Virus record (IMG/VR): IMGVR_UViG_3300021404_000007
Location: 64,001-100,917 of that record
DNA length: 36,917 nt
DNA from: a virus
Lineage: Duplodnaviria > Heunggongvirae > Uroviricota > Caudoviricetes
Strand: one strand, 5' to 3'
Position numbers and translations under genes: made by a program. Positions within the stretch are counted from its first letter, which is position 1. Every line of letters starts with the position of its first letter. The notes beneath the pieces are model-generated. The model was not told where the DNA came from and made no database searches. It was given only the letters and a program-made list of their open reading frames with translations. This document shows, in pieces, positions 7,073 through 30,302 of the stretch.

Positions 7073-10000
7073 TCAGCCGCCGCCCGGGACGGTGGCTAAC
7101 GGTGCGCCGCCGGAGACGGCGGTGGCGCTGGTGGAGTTGCCGATTTCCTTGATCGAGTCCGCGATGGGCGGGGTGGGCGCGAACGGGCTGTTGTTGACGG
7201 TGACGTGCAGTGTGCCGCCCACGCCGCCCGGTGTGCCGAGCGGCTGCTCTGCCGGAGCCTGAGAAGCGGACAGCCAGCTCGTGGTGGCGGCGCCATCACC
7301 GGCGCCGAACAGGGCATTACCGGCGCCCCACATTCCCCAACCACCCTGACCAGAGCCCGGTGTGACGCCGGGCGGGGGGTTGCCGGGACCAGCCGAGCGA
7401 GGCTGCGACGGCGCTTGCGGAACAGGACTGCCGGGGGCACCGGCAGATGGAGCCGGGGCACCGGCCACCGGCAGCGGGGGCGGCGTGAAGTGTTGGGTGC
7501 CACCGCCGGTCGGCGGCTGGCCTGAGACGCCGGGCGTCCCCTCACCGGGCCTGGGCTGCTTGCCGAACAGGTCCTTGCCGAGGCCGGGGGCGCCCACGCC
7601 GCCGAGCAGGCCACTGAACAGGCTTGAGGGGAGCTGCGCGCCGGGGCTGCCGGGCGGGGCGAACATGCCGGTCTGCACCTGGCCCATGTTCTGCATCAGG
7701 CCCGCGCCGACACCGAGGCCACCCATAGCCAGCTTCCAGATCCCCCACTCGGTGAACGGCTTGCCGAACACGTCCGGGAATCCCAGCTCCTGGAAGATGC
7801 CTTTGACCAGGCCGGCGCCCAGCTGCTTGGCGTCCTTGTCCTCCTTGCCCTTCTCCTCCGTGGGCGGCTTGGGGGGCGCCTCCTGCTCCTTGATAGTCTG
7901 CTCGGCGGTGGCCTGCCCATACTCCTGCCTCGCCTTGACTACCTTGGCGTTTTCCTCCCCTTCTTTCTGGTTGGCGTCGGACACGGCCTTCTTCTGCTTG
8001 TCGAGTTCCTCGGCGTGCGACCTGATCAGCTCCGGGCTGTTGTAGAGGCCCTCTAGCCGGGAGAGTTCGCGCTGCTGCGCGGCGGCGGCTTCGTGGGCTG
8101 CGGCCTGGTCTTGCAATGCCTGGTCCAGCTCGCCGTAGCGGTCGGTGACGTTCTGCCGGGCTGTCTGGATGCCCAGCTGCCACTGCTCGGTCCGGGCGGT
8201 CCAGTCCGCCTGCTGGCGCGGGTCGTAGGCCACGCCCGGCGGCGCCGGACCCCACGGGCTCGGATAGCCGGGTGACTGGGGGCCACCGGGCCCGATCACC
8301 GGACCACCGGGACTACCGGCATTGGCACCGCTGGAATCCATCGGCGTGTACGGCGTCGATCCGCCGGTGCCGGTCGTCCCCCGGCTCGGGTCACCGGCAG
8401 CCGCACCGGCCGGTGCCGACTCGCCGCCCTGGTACCCGGCTCCCAGGAGCGCGACGGCAGCGGGCGCGGGCGTCGACGAGACGCTTCCAGTGCGGGGTTG
8501 CCCAGCGCCCGCGCCCGGACCGCCGCGTGGCGGGAAGCCGCCACCCACGGTGCGGACGTGAACGTGGTTGCGGTGGCTCTGAGTCTCATCGCTCGGGTTG
8601 GCGCCGAAGCCCTCGCTGTGGCCGTTCGGGTACCACAGCGTGTTCTGCCAGATGGCGTACTCGACGCCGTACTGCCCGGCATTGGCCATCACCCAGTCCT
8701 TGACGGTGGTGCCCTCCGGGTTGTCGGTGCCCACGATGATGTCCACGGCAAGCCCGCTGGCATGTTCGTTGGGTGCGTCCGGCGCGCGGTAGAAGCCCTG
8801 GTTGGTGATGCCGAACTGCTGCTCCACCGCGTAGCCCAGCGCGATGGTGTCCACCTGCGCGCCCTGTGTCTGCAGCGGCTGCAAGCTGGCGCCTGGACCG
8901 CCTGCGTCGAAGAACTTGGGCTTCTTGCCGCTCCTGACGGCGGCGCGCATCCCGTACATCGCGCCGTGCCCACCCGCTGCGGCCACCTCGTCATCGGTCC
9001 ACACATGCTCGTTGGGCGCCAGCATGGCGAAGATGCTGTCCTGCCCCTTCCTGCTACCCGGCAGCCACGGGATGTCGCCGCCGCCGTTGAACGGTATGGC
9101 CTTGTGCCAGGCGCTGCTGGGCGGGAGGGGCATGGGGAACGGCGGGACCGGCCTGTCGAAATGGGCGCCCGGCGTGGCGAACGGCCACCAGTCGGGTGGG
9201 TAGGATCCTCCACCCCCGGTGGTGTTCCAGTCGTCGGGGTCGCGGCCACCGACATCGGCCTGCGCGATCCCGCCGCGCTGGAAACCGAACAGCCGCTTGA
9301 GCTTGGGAATCCACACCGCCGGGTCGGCTGATCCCAGGATGTTCTGGCCCGGCGCCTCGTGGGTTATCTCATGCACGTCGCGGGTTTCGCCCGGATCGAG
9401 GCTCATGGTGATCGGGTATTGGCCACCGGCCGACTCGCGCAGCTTCTTCCAGATTTGCGCGTTGGGACCGAGGTCGCCGGGCATATCGCTGTTGGGGCGG
9501 TGCCCCAACGGGTCGTTGGGGTCTATGGGTTCGCCGGAGAAGTCGATCTCGCCGCCCCCCTGGAAGCCGACCGCGCCGCCAAGCCGCCAGCCGGCGATGT
9601 CGGAGAGGATCTTCTTCGAGCGCTCGCTCGCGGCGTGCCCGAACGTCGACCAGAATCCCTTGTCCGGTGAACTTTCCGGGGGGCTGGCGCTGGGTAGCGC
9701 GGTGTAGGCAAGGGATGTCGAAGCTTTGCCGCTGCCCCACCTTGTTGGCAGTCCAGGCATCTCCCCGCCCAGCGCGATGAGCGGGTCGACCAATCCCTGG
9801 TTCTCGAAGAAGCTACCCAGCTTCCTGCCTTCGCCGCCCCTTCCCCAGCCACCGAGCGGGAACGCGCCCGAACCGCCCCAGAACTCGGAGGGCGACTTGG
9901 GTGCGGTGCTGGCGCCGCCGTGCGCAACCGTGCCCGGCTTCCCCCCCTCCGGCGCTGCGGGTGGAGGAGTGACGGCGGCGGCGGTGGTGCTGGGCATCGG

Positions 10001-13000
10001 ACCCACAATGGGGACGCCGCTGGCATCGCCGGGCACCCAATACTTCTTGCCGTCCTGCGTGTACGGCACCCAGGTCTTGGTGCCTGGTGGGCCGGAAGGG
10101 GTGGGCAGGCCGCCACGCGCCTTGTTGAACTCCTCGTCCGTCAGCGCGACCACGCCCGGCGGCAGACCCGCGACCACCGGTTTCGGTGGACCGCCCGGCG
10201 TACCGGCGGCTGGTGGGCCGGAAGCCATCTGAATGGAGGGGGGCACCTGCACGGCGCCGAATCTGCCGACACCACCCTGCTTGGTGAGTACCAGGACGGT
10301 TTGGCCCTGCTCGGTGGATTCCTGCGGCACCCACTCGTAGCCGCCGGGCGCCTCCGGCGGTCCGGCGCTGGAAACGGTGGGGCGCGCTGTCCCGGCGGGC
10401 ACCCAATAGACCTGACCATCCGGCGCGTGGTAGTAGCCCCAGCCGCCGTGGTCCGTCCAGCCACCTACGGGTGCGGCGATGGTGGATGCTCCCGGAGCAC
10501 CACCAGGAGCGGCGGGTGCTGCCGGAGCAGCCGGAGCAGCCGGAGCAGCCGGTGCAGCGGGGGTTACAGGCTGACCATGCTTGGCATCGCTCGGCCCAAA
10601 GACCTCCACCCCCTCACCGTTGTACCAATGCAACTTCCCATCCGGACCCGTCAACAATTCGGATGCCAAGCCGGGCTTGGCCTTTGGTCCGGTAGCCGCC
10701 GGTGCAGCCGGAGCGGCCGGGGCAGCCGGGGCAGTGACGCCGGGCAGCGTTGGGATACCGAGGCTGCCCGGTGTGGGGACGGGTACCGGGGCCGGACCGG
10801 GAGCGGGCGCCGGTGCTGCCGGAACGCCACCCGACTGCTGGGTGATGACCGCCGAGGGTGCGCTCGGTGGGGGCGGTCCAGCGGGAGTTGCCGGCCCAAT
10901 GACAAAGAGCGGATTGCCAGCGGTTCCCAGTGGAGCCGGGGCTGCCGGGGCGCCCGGGACAACGGGACCGCTGCCGGGAACTGTAGGAACGCCCTGCATA
11001 GCAGCGACAACTCGTTGGACGTAATCTGCTGGCTGCTGGTCACCGTGGTAATCGACTACGCCACTCTGTCCGACGAGCCTGGCGATCCACGCCGCTTTGT
11101 CCTGATCGGTGCCGCCAGCCGGGTATGGACCAGCTACGGAGGCGCGCCTCTGGAACTGGTCGGCCAGTGCGTTGACGTGGGTTTGTAGATCAGAGCCGCC
11201 GATCTCGCTATCGACGAAGCCCAGTGTTGGAACACCGGACGGGTTTCGACCTTCGACCTGGCTGAAGCCCTGGATGAGCCGGATTTGATCCGGGGTGAAG
11301 CCCTTCGCCCGCAGCGCGGCGACCAGTGCTGTGTCACCGGCAACCGGGGCGCCGGGGGCGCCGAGCGACGACGGCGCCCCGCCGACCGGTGTACGCACCG
11401 GGCCACTCGGACCAGCGGGCCCGTACTCCGGCACCGTCTGGCCGGTGCTCGGGTCCACCACCACGCCCTTGCCGGGGCCGACCTTGGGATTCAGCGTGAC
11501 ATCGACGCTGCCGGGCTCCACCAGCTCGCCGGATGTCTTGACGTCTTTGCCCTCGCGCTGCGGGTCCATCTCCACCGGCACATGCTTCGGGTTCTTGGCG
11601 GCTTCCTTGTACCACTCGTCCCACTTGTCATGGGCCTCTTTGTTGGCGAACTCGATGGCGGTGATAACGCCCTCGGTGTTCGTCTTGATGTCGATGCCCA
11701 TGTTGTGCAGCTTGTTCGTGACGTCCTGCCACTGCGCCGGGGTGCCCAACAGCTTGAGGTTGAACGGCTGCTCGGCGGTGCCGCCCATCAGCTCGCCCTG
11801 CGCGTTCTTGATCTGGTCGAATGCGGGCTTCAGCTCGCCGTTGATCTTCTCGGTGAATGCCGAGGTGACCTGCAGGTTGGCCTCCATCGCGCCGCTGGCA
11901 TCTTGTATGGCCCTTGTCACCTGCGGAATATCGTTGCGCGCGACGCCCTGCATCCGGTGACCGAGATCCTCGGCGATGTGCGTGAAGTCGAAATCGTCGA
12001 TCTTGGACAGGCTGCCCTGCACCTGGTCGATGGCGTCCTTGGCGCCCTTGAACTTGTCGCCGATGAACGGCAGGTCGTTGAGGACGCTAAGCAGCAGCTG
12101 GAACGGCGCGATGATGGCCGAGATGGTGCCGATCACCATCTCCTTGAGCGGGTTGAGGAACGCGGATACCAGCACCAGCGAGTCGCCGATGAACTGCACG
12201 ATGCTGCCCGCCGCCTGCATGATGTAGGTCGCGACCTCGGTGCCCCAGTGCAGGATCTTGTCCTGGTTCTCGGTCAGCCAGTGCGAGATGTTGTTGCTGG
12301 CGTCCACCAGTCCGTGGGCCATGTTCTCGCCCAGCGGTGCCAGCGTGGCCTTGGCCTGCTGGCTCAGCTTTTCCAGGGCGTCGTCCAGGCTCTGGGTGGC
12401 CTCGACCGCTTCCTTGGCGGGTGTCTCCAAGCCCTCCAAACTCTTCATCACGCTGGGCAGGTCGAGGATGCCCTTCTTGATGTCCTCCAACAGCAGCGGG
12501 GTGGCGCGCTGGCCGAACGACTTCTCGAACATCTTCGCGGCTTCGTTCATCTCGCCGCGATCCATCAACTGCTTAATGCCGATGATCTGGTCGTTCAGCC
12601 ACGACTTCGGGTCCTCGCCGGACTTGGTGGCCTCCTTGAACGCCTGGGTCCACATGAAGACCGCGCGGCGTGCGGGCTCGCCCTCCTGGGCCATCCGCGC
12701 GAAGAAGGTGCCCGCCTGCTCGGCGGTGTACCCGAAGGCACGCATGGCCGGGCCGACCTGCTCCATCTCGCTGATCATCTGGTCCATCGAGATGCCGGTG
12801 AGCCGGGCGGTGTTGCCCAGGATCGTGAGCATGTCGTTGGCCTTGTCGCTGCCCACGTTCCAGGCGTTGATCACCCCGGCGAACTTGGTGGCGTCGAAGT
12901 GGCCGAGAATCTCCTCCATCTCGGCGAAGTTGGTGGTCAGCTCTTTCAGCTGCTCGGGCGAGAGGTCCTTGATGTTGCTGTTGAGACGCCCGATGGCTTC

Positions 13001-18320: not shown

Positions 18321-18680
18321 CTATTGTGCGTCGTCCTGCTCCAACAAGTCGATCAAATCGGCCTTACGGGCAGCCGATGCATAGTCGATGCCGCGTGTGT
18401 CGAGCTCGGCTTTGAGTTCGGCCACGGTCATGGACTCGTACGCGGCGTCCTCGGCACCCTCCACACCCACATCCCCGTTGGGTTCATCCACATCCCCGTT
18501 GGGTTCGTCGGTGTCGTCGGGTGCGTCGGGCTCAACCTCCTCGTCGGGTTGCGCGCCCTCATCCGCAGGCGGCGCTACTGGCGGCTCCGGTGCCTCATCC
18601 TGCCAGTAGCGCCCCACCGCCGCCGCTGCCTCCTCGGGAGTCAGCGACGCGGGGGGAAACGCCTCTCGAACTTCGGCCAT
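18321..18680 (-). CDS. Acidic protein with C-terminal HeH/Rho-N/LEM-like domain (119 aa)
   Basis: Start MAEVREAF at 18680 (TAATG overlap with the MCP stop). C-terminus YESMTVAELKAELDTRGIDYASAARKADLIDLLE. Confidence 0.8.
   Translation of the reverse strand: MAEVREAFPPASLTPEEAAAAVGRYWQDEAPEPPVAPPADEGAQPDEEVEPDAPDDTDEPNGDVDEPNGDVGVEGAEDAAYESMTVAELKAELDTRGIDYASAARKADLIDLLEQDDAQ
18467..18506. repeat. 21-nt-period tandem duplication (encodes EPNGDVD twice)
   Basis: CCACATCCCCGTTGGGTTC at 18467-18485 and at 18488-18506. Confidence 0.9.
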
Positions 18681-20137
18681 TAGAACGTCGGTGCGGTCAG
18701 GCCGGTGATCTCGACGACCGACTGCGGGTACCGCGCAGCCGAGAAGGCGAGGTAGTTGTAGATCTGCAGGAGGACCGTCAGGTTGGCGGCCTTGGTCTCC
18801 GGCAGCACGCGGGCACGCACGCCCGACTCCCACAACACGATGTCCGATGCACGCAGCACGTAGATCGGGTCTTCGTTGGTGCCGGTGCCCAGGTTCGTCT
18901 CCAAGTTTGGATCGGTGACGACTGGCAACCCGTGCATCTGGCCGACCACTTGCTGGCTGGCCACGTCGGTGAGGATACCGGCGGCGTTGAACGGGTTGTT
19001 GGCGGCGGGCAGGAACAGCGGGCGCTGTTGCCCGTCCAGCAGCGAGAGGAACCAGCCCCACCGGCGCGGGTGCATCACGATCACCTCGGGCGGCAGGAAG
19101 CGGGTGGTGTGCACGGTTTGGATCGCGTTGGCAATCGCCGAGTACACGCCCGCCGTGGTCACGGCGCTGGCCGGTACCGAACCGATGTTCGGGGTCAACC
19201 GCACGCCGAGCACCTGGCCGTTGGCGCCGGTACCGGAGAGGCACTGGCGGTCGGTCTGGCTGGCGTGGTCTGCCACCAGGTCACGGAACACCACGTCATC
19301 GAACGCGATCGGGCTCTGGTCGATGAGCTGGATGGCCACACCCTGCTGGCCGCTGATCGTCCGCACGGGTGCGTTGATGAAGGTGTCCGTCAGGTCCACG
19401 TCGGCAACAGGCGCGTTGTCGGCGGTCTGGATGGCCGTGCTGGTACCGGTCAGCAACTTCGGGATGTTGATGCTGTCGGTTCCACCGGGCAACGGCTGGC
19501 GCTGCACCAGGTTGGCGAATGCCCGGCCCGGACGTGCCAGCTCAATGTACTGGTTCATCAGCCACGCGGGCGGGACGGCGTAGCCACCGCTGCCGTCCAC
19601 CCGGGACAGGTCGCGGAACTCCTTGTAGTCCGGGCTGGTGCGCACGTCCTGGGCGTGCCGCATCAGGCGTTCCCGGGACTCGCCGGTGTCGTCGATGTTC
19701 AGCGTCAGCTTGATGAGGTCCTGCATGTAGGACCGGCGCGGGTCGCCCTTCTGGTAGATCTCCTGCTCCTTGACCCGAGTAACCGTGTTCTCGGCCTCGC
19801 GGATCGCGACCAGGTTGCGGGTGATGCTGCCGGTGCGCTCGACCTCGGCGCGCGTCTCCTCGATGCGCTCGTCCAGGCCGGTGATGTCGTCGCCGAGCTC
19901 CTTCATCTGCTTGGTGTAGTTGCGCAGCTCGATGTCCTCCTGGACGTTCAGGGTGGGACGCCCGGCGCTGCGTGCCTCAAGCAGCACCGCCTCGGCCTTC
20001 TCCTGAATGCCCTCGCGCTGGCGCGCAAGCTGGCCACGGCGCTGCAGCATCCGCTTCAGGTAAGCCTCCAGGCCACCGGCGGGGTTGAGTGGATCGCGGT
20101 CCTCGGGTACGTCGAGGCGGTCCTCGATAATGGTCAT
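18680..20137 (-). CDS. HK97-fold major capsid protein with N-terminal delta/scaffold coiled coil (485 aa)
   Basis: RBS GAAGGA then ATG at 20137. Motifs GGYAVPP, SINIPK, GVAIQLIDQS, IVMHPRRW and GLPVVTDPN. Confidence 0.96.
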   Translation of the reverse strand: MTIIEDRLDVPEDRDPLNPAGGLEAYLKRMLQRRGQLARQREGIQEKAEAVLLEARSAGRPTLNVQEDIELRNYTKQMKELGDDITGLDERIEETRAEVERTGSITRNLVAIREAENTVTRVKEQEIYQKGDPRRSYMQDLIKLTLNIDDTGESRERLMRHAQDVRTSPDYKEFRDLSRVDGSGGYAVPPAWLMNQYIELARPGRAFANLVQRQPLPGGTDSINIPKLLTGTSTAIQTADNAPVADVDLTDTFINAPVRTISGQQGVAIQLIDQSPIAFDDVVFRDLVADHASQTDRQCLSGTGANGQVLGVRLTPNIGSVPASAVTTAGVYSAIANAIQTVHTTRFLPPEVIVMHPRRWGWFLSLLDGQQRPLFLPAANNPFNAAGILTDVASQQVVGQMHGLPVVTDPNLETNLGTGTNEDPIYVLRASDIVLWESGVRARVLPETKAANLTVLLQIYNYLAFSAARYPQSVVEITGLTAPTF

Positions 20138-20162
20138 TTGGGATTCCTTCGATGAGAAAAGG

Positions 20163-20251
20163 TGGCACGGCCCCATGACCGCAAGACGGCGGCCTTGACC
20201 GATGTGAACGAGACGCCCGCGGGACCGTGCCGGTTGGTGGGGGCCGTGCCA
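20163..20251. other. 12-bp inverted repeat enclosing a structured leader upstream of the MCP gene
   Basis: TGGCACGGCCCC (20163-20174) pairs with GGGGCCGTGCCA (20240-20251). A near-copy GGGACCGTGCC lies at 20221-20231. Confidence 0.6.
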
Positions 20252-20303
20252 GCCTCGCCCACCACGTCTGGAAGGAAATCTTGCGCGCGCTATGCCCCGG
20301 CAA

Positions 20304-21629
20304 TCAAGCCGACACGCCAGCGCGCCGCGCCTCAACCTTGCGCCGGATCAGGTCGCGCATCACCCACGCCCTGCCATCCGCGTGCCGGTACGGCTCATAC
20401 AGCGGCTTGTTGCGTTCGCCGTCGCGGTCCCAGCCGGGGCTGTCGGCCACCGCGTCGATGTACTTCTCGGCCTGGGTGTTGTGCTCGAAGGCGTAGACGC
20501 AGCCCTTGAGCCGCCGCGCCTTGGAGAGGGTGCGCACCACCGTGGTGAAGGCCACGTCCTCCCAGCCCCAGCCGATGAACTCGGAGGGCTGGCCGCCCAG
20601 CCGCCACCACTCCTTGGTGCTGGCGACGATGCAGCCGCCCACGCCCGCCACGCCGTCGCCGTCCCAGGTGTTGACGTAGGGCACGCTGGCCAGCTCTGCC
20701 AGCGGGTAGTCCAGGTACTGCGGCAGCAGGATGCGGTATTTGGTGAACGGCCACCAGACCCCCACCGGGTCGGCCACCGCGCGCAGGATGTTCAGCGGGT
20801 CGCACAGCGTGTCGGCGTCGGACACCACCACCACGTCCGTCTTGGCTTTGCTGACGGCGTTGTTGCGCGCCTGTGCCAGCGAGAAGATCTCGGTGTCGCT
20901 GTCGGCGGTCACCACCGGCCAGCCGAACATCTTCCAGAACCGCTGCACCCGGTCGAACGCCGCCAGCCGAGAGGGGGTGGGGCGCCACGGGATGCAGACG
21001 GTGGCCCGCAGTTGCTTGCCCAGCTCCGGCAGTACCATCGCCGGTTGCGCCAGGTCCAGCGTGCCGGTGGGGATGGGCCAGCCGCGCTTGCCGGTGGCGA
21101 AGACCAGCAGGTTCTGCCGGTACCACCACTCCACCCGCTGGTCCCACCACAGGTGCTCCCGCAGCATGTCGAACGGGTGGTAGCCGTGCTGGGCGAACAG
21201 CTTGGCCCAATAGGACGGCCACTGCTCGTTGACGTGGCCGCAGCCGCCTTGACCGGGCACCGCTGCGGAGAACACCACCACGTCGGCGTGCTTGCACAGG
21301 CTGGCCACCAGCGTCTTGGCGTGCCGCGCCCGCAGGTGCTCGCCCACTTCCAGGCACAGCGCCATGTCGAACCGGCGTCCCAGGTCCAGCGGCTTGGTCA
21401 GGTCGCGCGGCAGAAACCGGTCTGCCGGGATGCGCAGCTGGCGGCGCGGCACGTAGTCGCCGTCCACCCCGACCGACTGCGGCCACTGCGCCGCCCAGGT
21501 GCCGACGCCGCAGCCCACGTCGAGGACGGTGATGGGGTGCAGCAGCCGGTTGAGCAGGGGCGCCACCACGGCAGCGGACGCCGCCGAGCCACCGGCCTGC
21601 CAGCCGTACCAGTCGGCGTCGTAGGTCAC
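20304..21629 (-). CDS. Fusion of class I SAM-dependent methyltransferase (N-term) and GT-A glycosyltransferase of GT2/GT7-like type (C-term), 441 aa
   Basis: MTase motif I VLDVGCGVG plus CLEVGEH and SAAVPGQGGCGHVNEQ. GT half has VCIPWR, ARNNAV, DAD (DxD) and FIGWGWED. Confidence 0.88.
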   Translation of the reverse strand: MTYDADWYGWQAGGSAASAAVVAPLLNRLLHPITVLDVGCGVGTWAAQWPQSVGVDGDYVPRRQLRIPADRFLPRDLTKPLDLGRRFDMALCLEVGEHLRARHAKTLVASLCKHADVVVFSAAVPGQGGCGHVNEQWPSYWAKLFAQHGYHPFDMLREHLWWDQRVEWWYRQNLLVFATGKRGWPIPTGTLDLAQPAMVLPELGKQLRATVCIPWRPTPSRLAAFDRVQRFWKMFGWPVVTADSDTEIFSLAQARNNAVSKAKTDVVVVSDADTLCDPLNILRAVADPVGVWWPFTKYRILLPQYLDYPLAELASVPYVNTWDGDGVAGVGGCIVASTKEWWRLGGQPSEFIGWGWEDVAFTTVVRTLSKARRLKGCVYAFEHNTQAEKYIDAVADSPGWDRDGERNKPLYEPYRHADGRAWVMRDLIRRKVEARRAGVSA

Positions 21630-21805
21630 TGCACGGGCATGTCGTAGCAGACGGCGATGTTGCGGTACCGGGTGCCACCGGAGGAGGTCTCATTGGCCAT
21701 GTTCAGGCAGATCTTCTCGGCGTCCTTCTGTGACATGGGGGCGGTCACCCGCTGCATCCACACGGTGCCGGTCCACTCGTCGCAGCGGACCTGGTATTGC
21801 CTCAC
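21626..21805 (-). CDS. Small hypothetical protein (59 aa)
   Basis: Manual translation MRQYQVRCDEWTGTVWMQRV...CYDMPVQ. GTGA overlaps at both ends fill the gap exactly. Confidence 0.65.
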   Translation of the reverse strand: MRQYQVRCDEWTGTVWMQRVTAPMSQKDAEKICLNMANETSSGGTRYRNIAVCYDMPVQ

Positions 21806-23631
21806 GCCAGTTGCCGCAAGTACCCTGCCGCCTGGTCGAGCGTGGGCAGATCAGGCAGTTCGCCTTCCTTGCGCAGCTCGCGCAGCCGGTCGTCCACATT
21901 CAGGGTGATCTGCTCGTCGCCCATGCCGTCCACGTCGTCCTCGTCGTCGTGCACGTCATCCACCTGCTGCGGCGGGTTGGCCATGGCGCGCTGGTCGTCC
22001 TCGTCGTCGTCCGGCTCGTCGTCGTCCGGCTCCTCGCCCTTGGCGCGCAGGTGCGAGCCGTTCTGGAAGTTCGGCACGAAGGTGCCGGCGCCGGTATCTC
22101 CCGGTCCCGGCACCGGCACGTCTCCGGCGTGCGGGCTGGCCGCCACATGCAAGGTGTCCAGTGCGGGCATGTTGGCCGGGTTGACCTCGGTCTGTCCCGG
22201 CTGCGGTGCGTCGGTGGTGTACGGGGCGTAGTGCGGATCCGGGTTGTCGCCCAGCGGCTGCCAGTCGTATCCGGGTCCGGCCCAGCCGCGCCCGCTGCCC
22301 TGGATCGGGGCACCGGGTGTGGGTGAGCTGACGAACTGGCCCGACTGCCGGAAGGAGGGCAGCGGCACCCGGCTGCCGTCGCTCATCACCGCGACCAGGG
22401 TGGTGCCCCCGGTCATGCTGCGCACCGCCTCGACGGCGCACACGTCGGCGTTGTTGATGCCGGGATCGATCATGCGCGGCACCACGTCCACGTAGGCGGC
22501 GGCGACCGCCTTGTCCTCGCTCACGTCGTGCCCATGCTCCTTCATCGCCGCCTTGATCTTGCTCTTGATCGACGCCAGCTGCTCGGCGGTGTAACCCTTC
22601 TGGTTCTTGGGCATGTTGATGTAGCTCCACGCGGCCTGCACATGGGCCTCGTCGATGGGGTAGCGCTTCACCCCGTTGCCGTCGTGCGCCTGCTTGCCGT
22701 CCGGGCCCAGGTAGCCCGGGTCCGCGTACTTCACGTTGCCGTACTTGCCGGTGGCCCGGTCGTTGGCGCACGTCACGCACTGCCCCTCGTACAGCAGGTG
22801 GCTGCCGTCGAAGTTGACCATGGTGCCGCGCTTGCCGTCGTCGTCCTCGTTGTCGTCGTCGGCTTTGCCGCCGCCCTTCTTGAACGGTGCGGCCTTCTTA
22901 CCGGCGAAGGCCTTCTCCTCCTCGTCGTCCGGCTCGTCCTCGTCGGCGCCGGTAGCGCGCCAGGCCCGCTGCAGCGTCTGCAGGGCGTCGAGCAGTTGGG
23001 TGCGGTCCATCTTGCGCACCTCCAACAGGCCCTCGTTGGACAGGCTGGCCAGCGCGCCCACCGCGTCGGTGGACATGATGGCGTGCGTGTTCGGGTTCAT
23101 CCCGTAGTTGACCACCGAGACATCGCCCTTCTGCAGGCTCAGCTCGGTGATCATCCGGTGGCTGAAGCTGTCGTTCCACTGCTGGTCCTTGACCCGGAAG
23201 GAGAAGGACATCTCGTCCAGCAGCGGCTTGCGGGCCTCAGTGCTCTGCATCTTGGGCGCAATGCGCTGCACGTCCGGGTCGTTCGGGTCCAGCAGTGCCC
23301 GCATCTTCAGCCCGCGGCTGTCGGTGCTGAGGAACAGGTTGCCGCTCTTGGTCCGGGCCAGCGGCAGCCCCTCGTGGTTGACCAGCAGCATCAGGTCCGG
23401 GCTCTCGGCCAGCGTGCGGTCCATGGCACGCTTGTCCAGCTGCTCCACCCAGCCGCCGCGCTCCGGGCCGCCGTAGCAGTCGTACGGCTCCCAGGTGGCG
23501 GCGTACCCCTCCATCACCAGTTGGCCGCTGGCCGCGTCCTTGCGCAGTTCCAGCGGTTGGGCCAGCGCACGGCGCTCCGGAACGTCGATCAGCTTCAGGC
23601 GATTGCGGTGGTCCATGGTGTCCTCTTTCAT
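21802..23631 (-). CDS. HK97-family prohead (capsid maturation) protease fused to extra domains and an acidic scaffold-like tail (609 aa)
   Basis: Motifs MEGYAATW, LLVNHEGLPLART (His), EMSFSF (Ser) and DVSVV. Alternative start at 23616 (RBS AGAGG). Confidence 0.92.
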   Translation of the reverse strand: MKEDTMDHRNRLKLIDVPERRALAQPLELRKDAASGQLVMEGYAATWEPYDCYGGPERGGWVEQLDKRAMDRTLAESPDLMLLVNHEGLPLARTKSGNLFLSTDSRGLKMRALLDPNDPDVQRIAPKMQSTEARKPLLDEMSFSFRVKDQQWNDSFSHRMITELSLQKGDVSVVNYGMNPNTHAIMSTDAVGALASLSNEGLLEVRKMDRTQLLDALQTLQRAWRATGADEDEPDDEEEKAFAGKKAAPFKKGGGKADDDNEDDDGKRGTMVNFDGSHLLYEGQCVTCANDRATGKYGNVKYADPGYLGPDGKQAHDGNGVKRYPIDEAHVQAAWSYINMPKNQKGYTAEQLASIKSKIKAAMKEHGHDVSEDKAVAAAYVDVVPRMIDPGINNADVCAVEAVRSMTGGTTLVAVMSDGSRVPLPSFRQSGQFVSSPTPGAPIQGSGRGWAGPGYDWQPLGDNPDPHYAPYTTDAPQPGQTEVNPANMPALDTLHVAASPHAGDVPVPGPGDTGAGTFVPNFQNGSHLRAKGEEPDDDEPDDDEDDQRAMANPPQQVDDVHDDEDDVDGMGDEQITLNVDDRLRELRKEGELPDLPTLDQAAGYLRQLA

Positions 23632-24950
23632 CGTCGGGCGTAGCCGTTTCCGTTCGGCGGGTATGGGTAGTATCCGGCGGCGACCTGGGTGTCCTGCTCA
23701 CCACCGGCAATGGGCTCGCTATCCGGCCGCTCCGCTGGCGGCTTGGTGGGCAGCGGCGCACCGGGCGCGGCGGGCATGAAGCCGAGCGGCGCGTAGTTGA
23801 CCGGCTGCAGGTAGATGTCGCCGGTCTTGCCGATGGGCTCCAACTGCTCGCGGTTGCGCACCTCGTTCACGTTCAGCCAGCCGCTGTGGATGGCCTGGTC
23901 GTAGGCGGCGTAGCGGGTCTTGATGTCCCCGCGCAGCAGGTTGTTGTAGTCGAACCGGACGTACTGGCCGCTGGGCAGCAGGGAGGAGAACACGGATTCG
24001 ATGGGCGACGTCCAGCCCCGGAAGGTGTAGGTGATGGCGCCTATCGTCTGCTGCTCGATGCCGGTGCCCCAGCTGGTGGACTTCTCCACGTCGCCGATCA
24101 TGTGCGGCGGTATCCCGTACATCATCGCGATGTCGCCGCGCTGGAACCGGCGGGTTTCCAGGAACTGGCTCTCATCCGGCGAGATGGTCAGGTTCTGCCA
24201 CTTGAAGCCGCCGGTGAGGATGGCCGGCAGTCGCCGCCCGCCGTGGGTGGCGATCCACGCCTGCTGCTGGCGCGTCACCGCCGCGTCGTCCAGGTCCTGA
24301 TCGGTCATCAGCATCCCGCTGGGGTTCGCGCTCTCGCGGAAGTAGCGATAGCCGTACTCCTCGGCAGCCAGCCCCATGCCAATGGCGACCGCCGCCTGGC
24401 GCACCGGGCTCAGCCCCCACGGCTCGCCCGGCATGGTGAAGCGGCGGATGTGCACCATGTCCTCTTCCGGCACCCGCTGGCCCATCACCCGGTAGATCGG
24501 GTCGAACCACATCAGGATGTCCGGCCTGCGTTCCAGGAACACCGAGTCCGGGTGCAGCGGCAGCAGCGCGGTGGGCCGCATCAGCTTGTCCCAGCTGGTC
24601 ACCATGCCGTAGAAGTTGCCGCGCAGCGCCAGCGACGCCACCATCTGCCACTTGTACTCGAACAGGTCGAAGCCTGGGAAGGGCTGGCGCAGAATGGCCG
24701 GTTGCGGGTTGACCTCGACCGGCACCCCGTTGCCGTCCCGCCGGTACGCCTTCCACGGCAGGCTGGCGATGGTGTCGGCCAACAGCCGCACGCAGGCCAT
24801 GACGGTGAGGTTGGACATGGCGCGATGCACGCCCACGTAGTCGTCCAGCACGCCCACGGCTGGCGGCGGCACGAAGTTGGACGACGTCAGGGTGCGCTGC
24901 TCCGCAACCCCTGCCGATGGCCGTTGCACCAGGCGGCCCAGGATGCTCAT
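23628..24950 (-). CDS. HK97-family portal protein (440 aa)
   Basis: Start MSILGRL at 24950. Motifs ACVRLLADTIASLP, LALRGNFY, GLSPV, QFLETRRF, AMMYGIPPHMIG and LNVNEVR. Confidence 0.96.
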   Translation of the reverse strand: MSILGRLVQRPSAGVAEQRTLTSSNFVPPPAVGVLDDYVGVHRAMSNLTVMACVRLLADTIASLPWKAYRRDGNGVPVEVNPQPAILRQPFPGFDLFEYKWQMVASLALRGNFYGMVTSWDKLMRPTALLPLHPDSVFLERRPDILMWFDPIYRVMGQRVPEEDMVHIRRFTMPGEPWGLSPVRQAAVAIGMGLAAEEYGYRYFRESANPSGMLMTDQDLDDAAVTRQQQAWIATHGGRRLPAILTGGFKWQNLTISPDESQFLETRRFQRGDIAMMYGIPPHMIGDVEKSTSWGTGIEQQTIGAITYTFRGWTSPIESVFSSLLPSGQYVRFDYNNLLRGDIKTRYAAYDQAIHSGWLNVNEVRNREQLEPIGKTGDIYLQPVNYAPLGFMPAAPGAPLPTKPPAERPDSEPIAGGEQDTQVAAGYYPYPPNGNGYARR

Positions 24951-25069
24951 ACCGTTACAACGGTCCAGTCCTGGACGTGGCCCCGGTCGCACTGCCAGTT
25001 GTCATCGTCCACCCGCGTGTACTCAATCGGTCCGGTGCGGCCCTCGGCCTCGCATTGGGTGCACTTCAT
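24947..25069 (-). CDS. Small Zn-ribbon-like protein (40 aa)
   Basis: MKCTQCEAEG...WQCDRGH (CxxC...CxxxH). RBS GAAGGG; ATGA overlap with the portal start. Confidence 0.6.
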   Translation of the reverse strand: MKCTQCEAEGRTGPIEYTRVDDDNWQCDRGHVQDWTVVTV

Positions 25070-25104: not shown

Positions 25105-25509
25105 CTACTCTGCGTGATTGAGGCCTGTCGCCACGCCCAGAACGACGAGAGCAACGCCTCCCACGACCAGCGCCAGCCATAGGGCGATCAGACCGCATCC
25201 GACCGTAATTGCGACGATTCCGGTCAATTGCAGCGCATTTGCGACAAAATCCCGCCAATTTACCTCGGCTTTTTTCGACTCTGCCGGGACATTGGAAAGT
25301 ACCGCTTGTGGTGGGGTGGGCGCGTTTTTGGTCCGTTTACCCCTCGGGCGCCCTCGGCGGCGTACTACCGTGTCCAGCTCTGTTGGTGGCCGGATCGGCG
25401 GCAGGTTCGGATCGTACAAACGTTCGCTACCCAGCCGCTCCCCAATGGGCACGTCGGCCTTCATGTCCTCCGGCTTCACGGCCTCCGGCTGCCAGATCAC
25501 TTTCCCCAT
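25105..25509 (-). CDS. Membrane protein with two C-terminal TM helices (134 aa)
   Basis: Start MGKVIW overlaps the terL end. Hydrophobic C-terminus LTGIVAITVGCGLIALWLALVVGGVALVVLG, typical of the gene between terL and portal. Confidence 0.75.
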   Translation of the reverse strand: MGKVIWQPEAVKPEDMKADVPIGERLGSERLYDPNLPPIRPPTELDTVVRRRGRPRGKRTKNAPTPPQAVLSNVPAESKKAEVNWRDFVANALQLTGIVAITVGCGLIALWLALVVGGVALVVLGVATGLNHAE

Positions 25510-27113
25510 TTCTCCTCTGCCTCTCTCTCCCATTGCGCCAATGTCTCCTCGTCCGGCCACGCATGTATCTCCGGGTGGATGGGCTCGACGAAATTCTCCG
25601 ACAGCCATACCGCTGCCGCGCACGCGACCAGTGGCGCGGCGTCCACCGGGCTGTTGCGGCGGTCGAAGATCCAGGCGTCGTTGACCCGGCGGGAGAGGGT
25701 CGACGCCGCCGCCCGGTCCAGGACGAGGCTGGGCCTATGGAAAACCTCGCCCTGGACGATCTTGTCGTAAAACAGGCCGCAGCCGCCGGTCAACTCGGTG
25801 CCGGGGCCCCACTCGACCACCGGCACCCCGGCATCCTGTAGCTCGGTGATCATCCCGCTGGCCGGTGCGCCGGTCTTCTGCACGGCCACACCCTTCCACT
25901 TCGTCTTCCGCTCGGCCAGGTACGGCACCACCCAGTCCGTGCCGCGTGCCGCCTGCGCGATCTCGATGTGCAGGTAGCCGTCCGGGCGCTTGGCGGCCAC
26001 GGCGATGTAGGAGTGGGTGCGGTCGTAGTTCACGTCGAGTGCGGCATACACGGGTGCTCCCTCCGCACGGCGGCTGGCACCGTCCATGCCGTTCTGCCAG
26101 TACTCGGCCGGGATGATGCCCGGCTCCATGGCATCCACCCACTGGCACAGGTACTCGGTCTGGAAGCCCGGCATGTTCTTGTACTGCATCGCCTCGAAGT
26201 AGCCCTTCACCGTTTCGATGGTGAAGTCGGCCAGCCGGCCCATCGCGGGCAGGCTCAGGTACCAGTACCGGGGATCGCGCGGGTCCACGTCCATCGGGAC
26301 GCTCCACTCCCACATGCCCACCTTGGCGTCCTCGGTGGTGTCGGTGGTGATCCGGCGCAGCGCGCCTTCCCGCAGCGAGCGCAGCACCTCGCTGCGTGCG
26401 TCCCCCGCGTTGCTGGTGCAGATGACCTGGCCGTACATCGCCACCGTGGTGGTGGGCGCGATGGCGTTGTAGGCGTCCCAGGTGGTGTGCTCTCTTACCT
26501 CGTCCAGCATGGCCAGGTGCACGGTGAGGGAGCGCGCGCCCTTGCGGCTGGCGGTGGCCGCGCGCCAGAGGCGGCGGTTGGTCAGCACAGCGCGGTGCCG
26601 CCCGTTGGTGACGCGGTGGTTGATCAGCTCCCGGCACAGCACCGGGTGCTCGCGGATTTCGTCGACGACCTCGCTCAGCATGCCCTCGGCGTAGTCCAGG
26701 TTCTGTGCCGCGATGACGGCGACGCGCGCCGCCGGGCACGTCTTGCTGGCGTGGCCGTACTCGTTCATGAACAGCCGCCACAGTCCGATGCCCTTGATCC
26801 ACCGCGTCTTGCCCTGCTGCCGCCCGACCATGACCACCAGGGTTTGGAACCGGAAGCCGGTGTGGTCCAGCCGTTTCTCGAGTGCGTGCCAATACAGCCA
26901 GATCTGCCAGGGCAGCAGCGTCCAGCCCCATATCCGTTCCAGGAAGAAGATGCAGCTGGCACCCCAGCTGGTGACGTTGTTGAGGCCGCAGCCGCACGGG
27001 CAGAACTCCTCGGAACCTGCGAACGACTGGCAGTTGGCGGGCAGCGGTTTCGTCATCAGCCGCGGCAGCGTGCTGCCGAGGGTCCGTACGTCTTCTGTTG
27101 CCAGGGTGGTCAT
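25497..27113 (-). CDS. terL: Terminase large subunit (538 aa)
   Basis: Walker A GRQQGKT, Walker B AMLDEVRE, coupling motif TSNAG, nuclease YAALDV, and C-terminal VDAAPLVA. Confidence 0.96.
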   Translation of the reverse strand: MTTLATEDVRTLGSTLPRLMTKPLPANCQSFAGSEEFCPCGCGLNNVTSWGASCIFFLERIWGWTLLPWQIWLYWHALEKRLDHTGFRFQTLVVMVGRQQGKTRWIKGIGLWRLFMNEYGHASKTCPAARVAVIAAQNLDYAEGMLSEVVDEIREHPVLCRELINHRVTNGRHRAVLTNRRLWRAATASRKGARSLTVHLAMLDEVREHTTWDAYNAIAPTTTVAMYGQVICTSNAGDARSEVLRSLREGALRRITTDTTEDAKVGMWEWSVPMDVDPRDPRYWYLSLPAMGRLADFTIETVKGYFEAMQYKNMPGFQTEYLCQWVDAMEPGIIPAEYWQNGMDGASRRAEGAPVYAALDVNYDRTHSYIAVAAKRPDGYLHIEIAQAARGTDWVVPYLAERKTKWKGVAVQKTGAPASGMITELQDAGVPVVEWGPGTELTGGCGLFYDKIVQGEVFHRPSLVLDRAAASTLSRRVNDAWIFDRRNSPVDAAPLVACAAAVWLSENFVEPIHPEIHAWPDEETLAQWEREAEEKWGK

Positions 27114-28131: not shown

Positions 28132-28181
28132 TGTGGGCGCGGCGGCCAGGGTTCCGGGTTTAGCCGCCGCGCGTGTCTCAT
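28128..28181 (-). CDS. 17-aa micro-ORF (MRHARRLNPEPWPPRPQ), possible translational-coupling peptide
   Basis: ATGA overlaps at both ends bridge the MTase stop and the next start exactly. Confidence 0.45.
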   Translation of the reverse strand: MRHARRLNPEPWPPRPQ

Positions 28182-28840
28182 ACTTTCAGGTCGAACAGCC
28201 CCAGCTCGTGCTCGTTGGCCAGCACGCCGCCCGGTGGTGACTGCTCGGGTATCCGGTCGATCTGGTGCAGGTTGAAGGGCTCGGTGGTCAGGTCGTGCTG
28301 GTGCTCCATATAGCCCAGCCACGGGTAGTCCATCGGCTTGTACTCGAAGTCGTTGCTGGCGCCGGGATAGTTGGAGGCCAGCAGGTACTTGCTGCCGCTG
28401 GCCCGGAACTTGTCCAGCATGTGGTTGATGTACTCGTTGGGCAGGTGCGCCAGGAAGTCCCGGCACAGGATCAGGTCGCGGCGCGGGAACAGCCGTTGCT
28501 TGAGCAGGTTGGTGCGCACGAAGGAGACGTTTTTCCAGCTCCGGTACTTGGTCTTGTTGCGCTGGATCAGGTGCTCGTCCACGTCCATGCCGATGTAGCT
28601 GTAGACGTTGCTGATGTCCACCGTCTGCATCCACGTGAAGTCGCCGCACGGCGCGTCCAGCATCGTCTGCACCCGGTACTCCAACAGCAGGTACGGCAGC
28701 CGCTCCCGTAACCCCTTGGTGAACTCGATGCTGCTGCCGGGCCCGTTGAGGCTGCCGTTGATGAGCGCGAACTTGGGGTTGCACCGCATCTCCGAGACGA
28801 TCTGGGCCCAGGCGTGCGCCTGCATGTCGGCGAACTCCAT
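28178..28840 (-). CDS. Class I SAM-dependent methyltransferase, small-molecule/sugar type (220 aa)
   Basis: Motifs GPGSS, MLDAPCGD (motif I), YIGMDV (motif II) and DLILCRDFLAHL. No DNA-MTase catalytic DPPY/NPPY motif. Confidence 0.88.
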   Translation of the reverse strand: MEFADMQAHAWAQIVSEMRCNPKFALINGSLNGPGSSIEFTKGLRERLPYLLLEYRVQTMLDAPCGDFTWMQTVDISNVYSYIGMDVDEHLIQRNKTKYRSWKNVSFVRTNLLKQRLFPRRDLILCRDFLAHLPNEYINHMLDKFRASGSKYLLASNYPGASNDFEYKPMDYPWLGYMEHQHDLTTEPFNLHQIDRIPEQSPPGGVLANEHELGLFDLKV

Positions 28841-29476: not shown

Positions 29477-29610
29477 GACTTCAAGTATGGATTCGGCGTC
29501 ATCAGCACGTAGGCCAGCAGGCACCACGGGCACACGTTGTCCTGGTTGAGCACGCGCACATGGCGGGCCTGCCCGCAGTCCCGGCAGTTCGCCATCTCCT
29601 GCGCCTTCAT
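29473..29610 (-). CDS. Small Zn-finger-like protein (45 aa)
   Basis: MKAQEMANCRDC...VCPWC with ATGA overlaps at both ends. Confidence 0.6.
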   Translation of the reverse strand: MKAQEMANCRDCGQARHVRVLNQDNVCPWCLLAYVLMTPNPYLKS

Positions 29611-30302
29611 GCGTGCGCCAGCGGGAAGAGGCCCAGCTCCCGCTGCTCCGTCAGCACCCCGCCGGGTCCGGGGTCCTCCTGCACCGCCTGCACCTTGCGC
29701 AGCGAGAAGGGCGGCTCCTCCAAATTCACCGGCCGCTCCATGTAGCCCGCCCAGGCGTAGGCGTTCGGGTCGTAGACGAACTGGTTGGTCGAGTCCGGGT
29801 AGGTGGTGGCCAGCAGCCACTGCGTGCCGCTGGCCATGAACTTGTCGAGCACCGCGCAGATGTAGTCGTTGGTGAGATGGCCGAGGAAATCGCGGCACAG
29901 GATCAGGTCGAACCGTGGCACCTGCTCGACGGTGAGGAGGTTGACCTGCTCGAACACCACCGCGGGCCGCTCCTCCCCCATGTAGTCGCCCATCGCCACC
30001 CGCTGCCTGCACCGCTCCACCCGGCCGGGGTCCACGTCCCAGCCGGTGTACTTGATGCCGCTCAGGTTCACCATCCGCATCCAGTTCCAGTCGCCGCACG
30101 CCGCATCCAGCATGGTGATGACGCCCAGGTAGTTGAGCAGCTGCGGCAGCTGATCCCGCAGCGTCTTGGTGCAGCCCACGCTGGCGCCCGGTCCGTCCCA
30201 GCTGCCGCCGGGCTGGGTCGGAATCAGCGGGTGCGCCTCAGCCTGCTCGGCCCACTCCCGTATCTCACTCCACGCCCTTGCCTGGTCCTCGACAAAGCTC
30301 AC
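29607..30302 (-). CDS. Class I SAM-dependent methyltransferase, paralog of 28178..28840 (231 aa)
   Basis: Motifs GPGAS, MLDAACGD, YTGWDV and DLILCRDFLGHL; collinear with the paralog to the last residues (ELGLF). Confidence 0.88.
   Translation of the reverse strand: MSFVEDQARAWSEIREWAEQAEAHPLIPTQPGGSWDGPGASVGCTKTLRDQLPQLLNYLGVITMLDAACGDWNWMRMVNLSGIKYTGWDVDPGRVERCRQRVAMGDYMGEERPAVVFEQVNLLTVEQVPRFDLILCRDFLGHLTNDYICAVLDKFMASGTQWLLATTYPDSTNQFVYDPNAYAWAGYMERPVNLEEPPFSLRKVQAVQEDPGPGGVLTEQRELGLFPLAHA

Follow-up and report, generated by a model that had tools for sequence, protein, structure and literature searches.

A methyltransferase-glycosyltransferase fusion gene among the head genes

The window that we analyzed, i.e., the whole stretch of 36,917 nucleotides (nt), is the last 36.9 kb (positions 64,001 to 100,917) of a 100.9-kb IMG/VR record from an uncultured, mycobacteriophage-like virus, IMGVR_UViG_3300021404_000007, which has a completeness estimate of 84%. 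Among its late genes, which run in the order portal, prohead protease, fusion gene, major capsid protein (MCP), it contains a gene whose product combines an N-terminal class I S-adenosylmethionine (SAM) methyltransferase with a C-terminal glycosyltransferase of the GT-A type, and this fusion gene is the subject of the present analysis (Table 1). An earlier note on this DNA had described a single polypeptide joining these two activities, and our analysis bears this out, in that the open reading frame (ORF) is intact, its two halves match the profiles PF13489 and phrog_1721, respectively, and both folds are recovered in a structural model.

The match of the N-terminal half to PF13489 (Methyltransf_23) has an E-value of 2.3e-8 and a score of 34.4 bits, above the gathering cut-off of 27 (36.1 bits in a scan of the phage's own genome), and the C-terminal half aligns with positions 3-231 of the 232 in phrog_1721, annotated as "galactosyl transferase", with an E-value of 9.2e-30. 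The Pfam glycosyltransferase models gave short, partial matches that lie under their cut-offs, namely PF00535 (GT2; 21.2 versus 23.3 bits), PF10111 (GT2_2; 22.0 versus 27.3 bits) and PF02709 (GT7C; 19.7 versus 23 bits). A search of NCBIfam gave no family for the fusion protein, and a PDB sequence search with it returned chance-level matches only.

All of the motifs quoted earlier from the sequence are present: SAAVPGQGG..HVNEQ..YW occupies residues 121-141, and the glycosyltransferase domain contains DAD at 271-273 and GWGWED at 353-358, followed by FEHN at 381-384. The conserved blocks of the methyltransferase domain are motif I (VLDVGCGVGTW), LEVxEH and PGQGGxGHxNEQWPSYW. Alignment of 18 full-length homologues (59-70% identity) demonstrated that VLDVGCGxGxW, LEVxEH, PGQ.G..H.N..WPSYW, DAD, GWGWED and FEHN are conserved throughout, and that the core residues of these motifs are invariant, including D37, G39, C40, G41 and G43 of motif I and the DAD triplet. 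An AlphaFold model built on the homologue alignment (pLDDT 77, pTM 0.76) consists of a methyltransferase fold followed by a GT-A fold. In Foldseek searches, the modelled methyltransferase domain matched many methyltransferase structures with a probability of 1.0, among them small-molecule O-methyltransferases and the dTDP-sugar N-methyltransferases TylM1, DesVI, KedS8 and CalS10, and the modelled glycosyltransferase domain matched the chondroitin polymerase K4CP, human beta-1,4-galactosyltransferase 1 and WbbD. Given these profile matches, conserved motifs and the two-domain model, we consider the fusion to be real, and both halves look catalytically competent. One further candidate for a full-length fused homologue, P0121/P0269 from a Trichodesmium genome, has two matched stretches but was rejected, since it is a tandem methyltransferase-methyltransferase protein.

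Table 1. Features of the window discussed in the text (strand -, minus).
Feature	Position	Strand	Evidence or remark
Two paralogous stand-alone methyltransferase genes, upstream of terminase	28178-28840, 29607-30302	-	phrog_3382 E 2e-41, 6e-41; weak Pfam methyltransferase matches
Large terminase	25497-27113	-	
Portal	23628-24992	-	
Prohead protease (Peptidase_S78 and DUF6582), 609 aa	21802-23631	-	Pfam E 3e-21; phrog_7053 E 1e-57
59-aa ORF bridging protease and fusion gene	21626-21805	-	Sequence read; GTGA overlap at each end
Methyltransferase-glycosyltransferase fusion gene, 441 aa, GTG start, TGA stop	20304-21629	-	ORF list, profiles, homologues, model
Methyltransferase domain, about residues 1-195, class I SAM	21045-21629	-	PF13489 at residues 22-148
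GT-A glycosyltransferase domain, about residues 205-441	20304-21017	-	phrog_1721 at residues 208-430
Untranslated spacer, 166 nt, fusion-gene stop to MCP start	20138-20303	-	Sequence read
MCP, HK97 fold with N-terminal delta domain, 485 aa	18680-20137	-	PF05065; phrog_2263 E 3e-78
Small acidic protein, C-terminal HeH/SAP DNA-binding motif, directly downstream of MCP gene	18321-18680	-	
Major tail (tube) protein, 200 aa	15215-15817	-	Weak PF25681 match; orthologues in related loci

Junctions with the neighbouring genes

The fusion gene had been placed between the protease and MCP genes and described as translationally coupled at this junction. The gene order holds, with the qualification that a 59-amino-acid (aa) ORF intervenes on the protease side, and coupling is plausible on that side only. 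GTGA at 21805-21802 is common to the stop of the protease gene and the start of the 59-aa ORF, and GTGA at 21629-21626 to the stop of this ORF and the GTG start of the fusion gene; upstream coupling of the fusion gene would thus run via the 59-aa ORF. The G+C content at third codon positions (GC3) is 0.92 in this ORF and 0.94, similar to the neighbouring genes, in the fusion gene. The 59-aa ORF has no Pfam match, tblastn over related loci returned zero counterparts, and in those loci the protease stop directly adjoins the start of the fusion gene. On the MCP side, there is no translational coupling to the fusion gene; a 166-nt spacer separates the two genes and the MCP ATG at 20137 has its own ribosome-binding site, GAAGGA.

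The spacer contains a block of about 50 nt conserved in four relatives (L007, L009 and L017 among them), as well as an 11-12 bp long-range inverted repeat (GGCACGGCCCC...GGGGCCGTGCC) around a small hairpin. A search of the spacer for a sigma-70-like promoter, an intrinsic terminator or an Rfam family found none of these, and its predicted fold is no better than that of shuffled sequence (z -0.61, not significant). Beyond the MCP gene and the gene for the HeH/SAP protein, the late genes of the window continue on the same strand with connector genes, the tail tube gene and a gene for a 2415-aa tape measure protein. The same order of MCP gene and small HeH/SAP protein gene is seen in contig L007.

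Relationship to known glycosylation systems

The cultured phages with the closest MCPs all infect mycobacteria, with identities of 57% to Mycobacterium abscessus prophages, 52% to Cluster Y phages and 46-50% to Cluster J phages. Since, in addition, one fused homologue is annotated in an assembly of Mycolicibacterium sphagni, the host is most likely a mycobacterium or a close relative of one. A megablast search with 6 kb against 50,697 phage records gave zero matches, and no full-length match to the fusion protein was found in the same set of records.

The earlier note had regarded a fused enzyme of this kind, sited inside the head genes, as an arrangement not yet described. This does not hold, as three precedents exist. 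In Cluster J, 8-10 genes, mostly encoding glycosyl transferases, are inserted between the capsid and connector genes, and one product of this block, LittleE gp17, is an N-terminal SAM methyltransferase fused to a glycosyltransferase (PMC3706429, 2013). In Cluster O, an O-methyltransferase gene and three glycosyltransferase genes lie between the portal gene and that for the protease, and methyl and glycan modification of the capsid was proposed (PMC4351075, 2015). Finally, our Pfam analysis of Che8 gp108 (L077:2172-3347), annotated merely as "glycosyltransferase", identified a GT2 domain at residues 31-132 and a TylF/Methyltransf_24 domain at residues 224-366. The fusion gene of the window is a non-orthologous variant of this already described type of virion-decoration cassette; as a third, non-orthologous pairing of a methyltransferase with a glycosyltransferase inside head genes, it extends both the published idea and the published arrangement.

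The closest of these precedents in architecture is LittleE gp17 (408 aa), in which Pfam places PF13489 at 18-135 and GT2 at 229-369. Both proteins are about 410-440 aa in length, have an N-terminal PF13489-type methyltransferase and a C-terminal GT-A domain and are encoded within the head block, and LittleE, a siphovirus with a genome of about 110 kb, has an MCP about 49% identical to that of the window. However, the two fusion proteins have no detectable orthology, the best BLASTP match between them having an E-value of 0.007 over 71 residues and covering motif I only; the glycosyltransferase half of gp17 belongs to a different GT2 subfamily, and its gene lies after the MCP gene rather than before it.

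Homology of the glycosyltransferase domain leads instead to Che8, Corndog and Courthouse. In passages of PMC11600133 and PMC12363180 that cite Freeman et al. 2023, the capsid and tail tube are given as glycosylated in Che8, Corndog and Myrna. Profile comparison of the window domain with Che8 gp109, Corndog gp37 and Courthouse gp17, which belong to clusters credited with this modification, by hhalign gave a probability of 98% and an E-value of 1.5e-13 across 212 columns, in an alignment that brings the catalytic blocks into register, and direct matches were obtained to Courthouse gp17 (E 6.6e-8) and Che8 gp109 (E 1.3e-4). In Che8 and Corndog, too, a methyltransferase accompanies the glycosyltransferases, as the GT2-TylF fusion gp108 in the former and as the TylF O-methyltransferase gp35 in the latter. 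Corndog gp35-gp38 are encoded inside the head block, between portal and protease, and Che8 gp108-gp110 just before the terminase gene, across the genome ends. Unlike these methyltransferases, that of the window is a Methyltransf_23 and not a TylF enzyme, and the order of its two domains is reversed relative to gp108; Corndog gp35 was considered as a relative of the window methyltransferase domain and rejected, the two being unrelated. The cluster in Courthouse (Cluster J; gp15-gp17 and gp21) likewise adjoins the MCP gene and encodes a TylF O-methyltransferase, a glycosyltransferase and a "galactosyl transferase", with gp17 64% identical to Che8 gp109, but these genes are separate and downstream of the MCP gene, and their methyltransferase is unrelated to that of the window. 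Myrna (Cluster C2), one of the phages reported to be glycosylated, has no homologue of the fusion protein.

The family of the methyltransferase domain is very large: relatives at 45-57% identity number in the thousands, and many of them are fused to glycosyltransferases. It had been described as a type found in polysaccharide loci, and the nearest cellular homologue that we examined agrees with this description: P0059 of Mycobacterium kubicae, 55% identical, is encoded in a chromosomal polysaccharide locus together with GT2 genes, RgpF, an O-acyltransferase, UDP-glucose dehydrogenase and a 489-aa methyltransferase-GT2 fusion. The M. kubicae locus resembles the window in holding a fusion of its own, here alongside sugar-nucleotide enzymes, but differs from it in being cellular and unlinked to virion genes, and in that its fused glycosyltransferase is a canonical PF00535 GT2.

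Position and content of the locus in related phages

Using the fused-protein alignment, we gathered 67 IMG/VR loci and mapped onto them the large terminase (TerL), portal, protease, MCP and tail tube proteins of the window together with the two domains of the fusion protein. Among the close relatives, with TerL 51-80% and MCP 66-82% identical to those of the window, the glycosyltransferase gene, with or without the methyltransferase, is found at three positions. At position A, between the protease and MCP genes, it occurs in the window and in six other distinct contigs, L007, L009, L013, L017, L033 (identical to L038) and L039; because all of these have TerL identities of at least 70% where readable, this position probably arose once. 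At position B, represented by about 12 distinct contigs (including L003, L005 and L006, which carry the fused form), it lies on the same strand, upstream of a small RNaseE-like gene that precedes the TerL gene; it is directly upstream in most of these contigs, and about 6 kb separate it from TerL in L028-L031. Position C, seen in about 6 contigs (including L011 with the fused form), is as position B, but with the gene divergently transcribed. The fused form is thus present at all three positions, which indicates that the fusion predates the move into the slot between the protease and MCP genes.

Of the close-relative loci, 25 distinct ones also include head genes, and in each of these no more than about 1-6 kb separate the gene from the head module. 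Linkage to head genes is thus repeated among close relatives, although it does not extend to the contig L032 or to the homologues in Cluster C1 and Gordonia phages.

The methyltransferase half is less constant than its partner. Several lineages encode proteins of 345-386 aa (P0019-P0029, for example L016:10001-11002) that have retained the methyltransferase's C-terminal helices together with the glycosyltransferase domain and have lost SAM motif I, LEVxEH and the PGQGG block, and other lineages encode the glycosyltransferase alone. It appears, from these sequences, that the methyltransferase half has decayed to a non-catalytic remnant in some lineages. Since its motifs are lost, or the domain is absent, in several lineages, the glycosyltransferase seems to be the constant part of the system and methylation an optional one.

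The slot between the protease and MCP genes also varies in content among sister phages. For example, in L017, the MCP of which is 79% identical to that of the window, the slot (7241-10780) contains a stand-alone methyltransferase that is an unfused orthologue of the window domain (61% identity), a 533-aa protein with a C-terminal TylF methyltransferase that shares 54% identity with that of Che8 gp108 and 50% with Corndog gp35, as well as a GT2 and the glycosyltransferase orthologue. In L033, the same slot encodes a 450-aa protein (8474-9826) in which a sulfotransferase (PF13469, 31.3 bits, above cut-off) is fused to a GT2, followed by an orthologue of the window glycosyltransferase domain at 41% identity, and this sulfotransferase fusion hints at sulfated glycans. 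Judged by their sequence matches, the slot contents of the sister phages are all glycan-tailoring enzymes.

Virion glycosylation with sugar methylation and alternative functions

Taken together, the intact and conserved domains, the homology of the glycosyltransferase to Che8 and Corndog enzymes, the tailoring genes in sister slots, the polysaccharide-locus type of methyltransferase, the linkage to head genes and the GC3 and GTGA overlaps of the fusion gene lead us to consider it rather probable that this gene serves late-expressed glycosylation of virion proteins with methylation of the sugar. The glyco-methyl decoration enzyme tied to head genes that the earlier note envisaged accordingly survives as the best-supported reading in its enzymatic and genomic parts; as regards the substrate, we infer that the acceptor is a virion protein and that the methyl group is placed onto the sugar, with a putative benefit such as surface shielding or adsorption; the mimicry of methylated mycobacterial glycans (GPL/PGL) proposed in the earlier note would be a hypothetical role.

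Under this reading, the fusion gene would be co-transcribed with the late head genes, and its translation would proceed by re-initiation at the GTGA overlaps after the protease gene and the 59-aa ORF, so that the enzyme would be available during synthesis of the capsid and tail proteins. The GT-A domain would take a sugar from a nucleotide-sugar donor and add it to an O-glycan being built on virion proteins, probably with inversion of configuration, as suggested by the DAD metal/nucleotide-sugar site and the GWGWED loop, which resembles that of beta-4-galactosyltransferases, and the methyltransferase domain would methylate the same glycan, as a cap or tailoring step. The targets would be capsid, tail tube and/or minor tail proteins, with the MCP and the tail tube protein of the window as candidate substrates, and the resulting O-linked glycans would be methylated in part, on the pattern of the Che8, Corndog and Cluster J systems. 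An unfused glycosyltransferase of the same family, encoded elsewhere in the genome, might supply another step. The same pathway may also include the two paralogous stand-alone methyltransferases encoded upstream of the terminase gene; many related loci have homologues of these, situated within a few kb of the gene for the glycosyltransferase. Virion glycosylation of mycobacteriophages is reported to blunt antibody recognition, and such an effect bears on the phage therapy of Mycobacterium infections.

Several observations weigh against this interpretation. The GT25-like enzyme of known systems (Che8 gp110/Corndog gp38), called essential for capsid glycosylation in PMC12363180, has no counterpart in the 100.9-kb record (estimated to be 84% complete), in which we found no PF01755 domain at E<=0.1 and no tblastn match. 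Che8 MCP (gp6), Che8 tail tube (gp11) and Corndog MCP (gp41) all end in -GS, which we infer to be an acceptor motif in these substrates; this ending is absent from their counterparts in the window, where the MCP ends in -LTAPTF and the tail tube protein in -GVLAP. Our attempt to derive an acceptor site from the MCP C-terminus was likewise unsuccessful: every relative with the glycosyltransferase has a conserved ITGLT(A/P)PTF, but because phage Typha, from which any GT2-like gene is missing, has an identical ITGLTAPTF, the MCP C-terminus gives no acceptor signal. The tail-tube C-termini vary among relatives and some are rich in Ser/Thr, the window's own (-VLAP) not being one of these. Furthermore, the only other glycosyltransferase in the genome, an unfused paralogue 41% identical to the window domain and 31% identical to Corndog gp37 (E 1e-15), is encoded at G000:C1:46760-47440 (L002:1414-2100, minus strand) between a DpdA-like ORF of 349 aa and a ParB-like ORF of 189 aa, i.e., inside a 7-deazaguanine DNA-modification operon, so that members of this family might act on DNA. 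Finally, the more distant contig L032 (48% identity) has no head genes within 10 kb of the gene, the distant homologues in Cluster C1 and Gordonia phages lie outside head operons, and methylation is, on the comparison of lineages given above, dispensable in several of them.

The variability of the protease-MCP slot suggests an extension of the virion-glycosylation reading, which we put forward tentatively and regard as possible though doubtful. The slot would be a hypervariable glycan-tailoring island, in which sibling phages (MCP 75-82% identical) carry one of three gene sets, namely the methyltransferase-glycosyltransferase fusion; a separate methyltransferase with a TylF methyltransferase and two glycosyltransferases; or the sulfotransferase-GT2 fusion with a glycosyltransferase. 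All three sets would act on virions and would give them chemically differing surface glycans, with methylation in some phages and sulfation in others, in a serotype-like diversification. Were this so, the sulfated glycan would, to our knowledge, be the first in a phage. The recurrent pairing of the two enzyme types, a gene that stays near the head module while shifting its position, the decay of the methyltransferase and the swapping of enzymes together suggest that selection acts on the chemistry of the glycan and not merely on its presence, and we consider the variability of the slot among siblings, including the sulfotransferase fusion, to be the more interesting lead.

An alternative function is remodelling of the host envelope, whereby a late change of a cell-wall glycan or glycolipid might hide receptors and thereby spare progeny from loss on debris, or might keep out competing phages, with the virion proteins left untouched. 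The methyltransferase family, typical of cell-surface polysaccharide loci, one of which has its own methyltransferase-GT2 fusion, is in keeping with such a role, as are the structural matches to WbbD and the capsule polymerase K4CP, whose acceptors are lipid-linked or polymers, and phage glycosyltransferases that convert surface antigens are well established. Seroconversion genes are, however, usually morons expressed during lysogeny with membrane partners such as GtrA/GtrB, whereas translation links the fusion gene to the late head operon and no membrane-protein partner was noted in the slot. The repeated linkage to head genes over three positions would also be hard to account for, and we therefore regard this explanation as improbable.

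DNA hypermodification is a further alternative, in which the glycosyltransferase, with or without the methyltransferase, would decorate a modified base, for example a 7-deazaguanine derivative, near packaging and thereby shield the genome from restriction. This is suggested by the paralogue between the DpdA-like and ParB-like genes and by relatives such as Typha, where the Dpd operon lies directly upstream of the terminase gene, near the site of many orthologues of the fusion gene. No orthologue at position B or C adjoins a DpdA gene, however, and the partners in sister slots (the TylF O-methyltransferase, the sulfotransferase-GT2 fusion and the extra GT2) are of glycan-tailoring types; together with the cellular relatives of the methyltransferase in polysaccharide loci and the homology of the glycosyltransferase to the Che8 and Corndog cluster enzymes, this makes an action on DNA quite unlikely. 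Equally hard to favour is direct methylation and glycosylation of a minor tail (receptor-binding) protein for adsorption rather than shielding, with the methyl groups on amino-acid side chains, since, although a mycobacteriophage minor tail protein is reported to receive modifications of the methylation and glycosylation type that depend on the host methyltransferase MepM and are required for progeny infectivity (PMC13445384), and upstream of the terminase gene the phage encodes a glycine-rich minor-tail-like protein as well as two more methyltransferases, the relatives of the window methyltransferase accompany glycosyltransferases in polysaccharide loci and its fusion to a glycosyltransferase argues for a common glycan substrate.

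Intein-like inserts in the glycosyltransferase and head genes

Apart from the question of its function, the glycosyltransferase gene is interrupted in three contigs. In L036 (9860-11890), an in-frame insert of about 346 aa occurs exactly before the C of CGWGWED, and the gene is likewise interrupted in L034 and L037. The L036 insert begins with Cys and ends with ..TGN followed by Cys, an intein-like layout within the catalytic loop; Pfam recognized neither an intein nor an endonuclease domain there. Inserts of about 1 kb also split the terminase and portal genes in L006, L018-L022, L034 and L037, and L006 has LAGLIDADG and intein-splicing Pfam matches. Inteins thus appear to be common in the head genes of this lineage.

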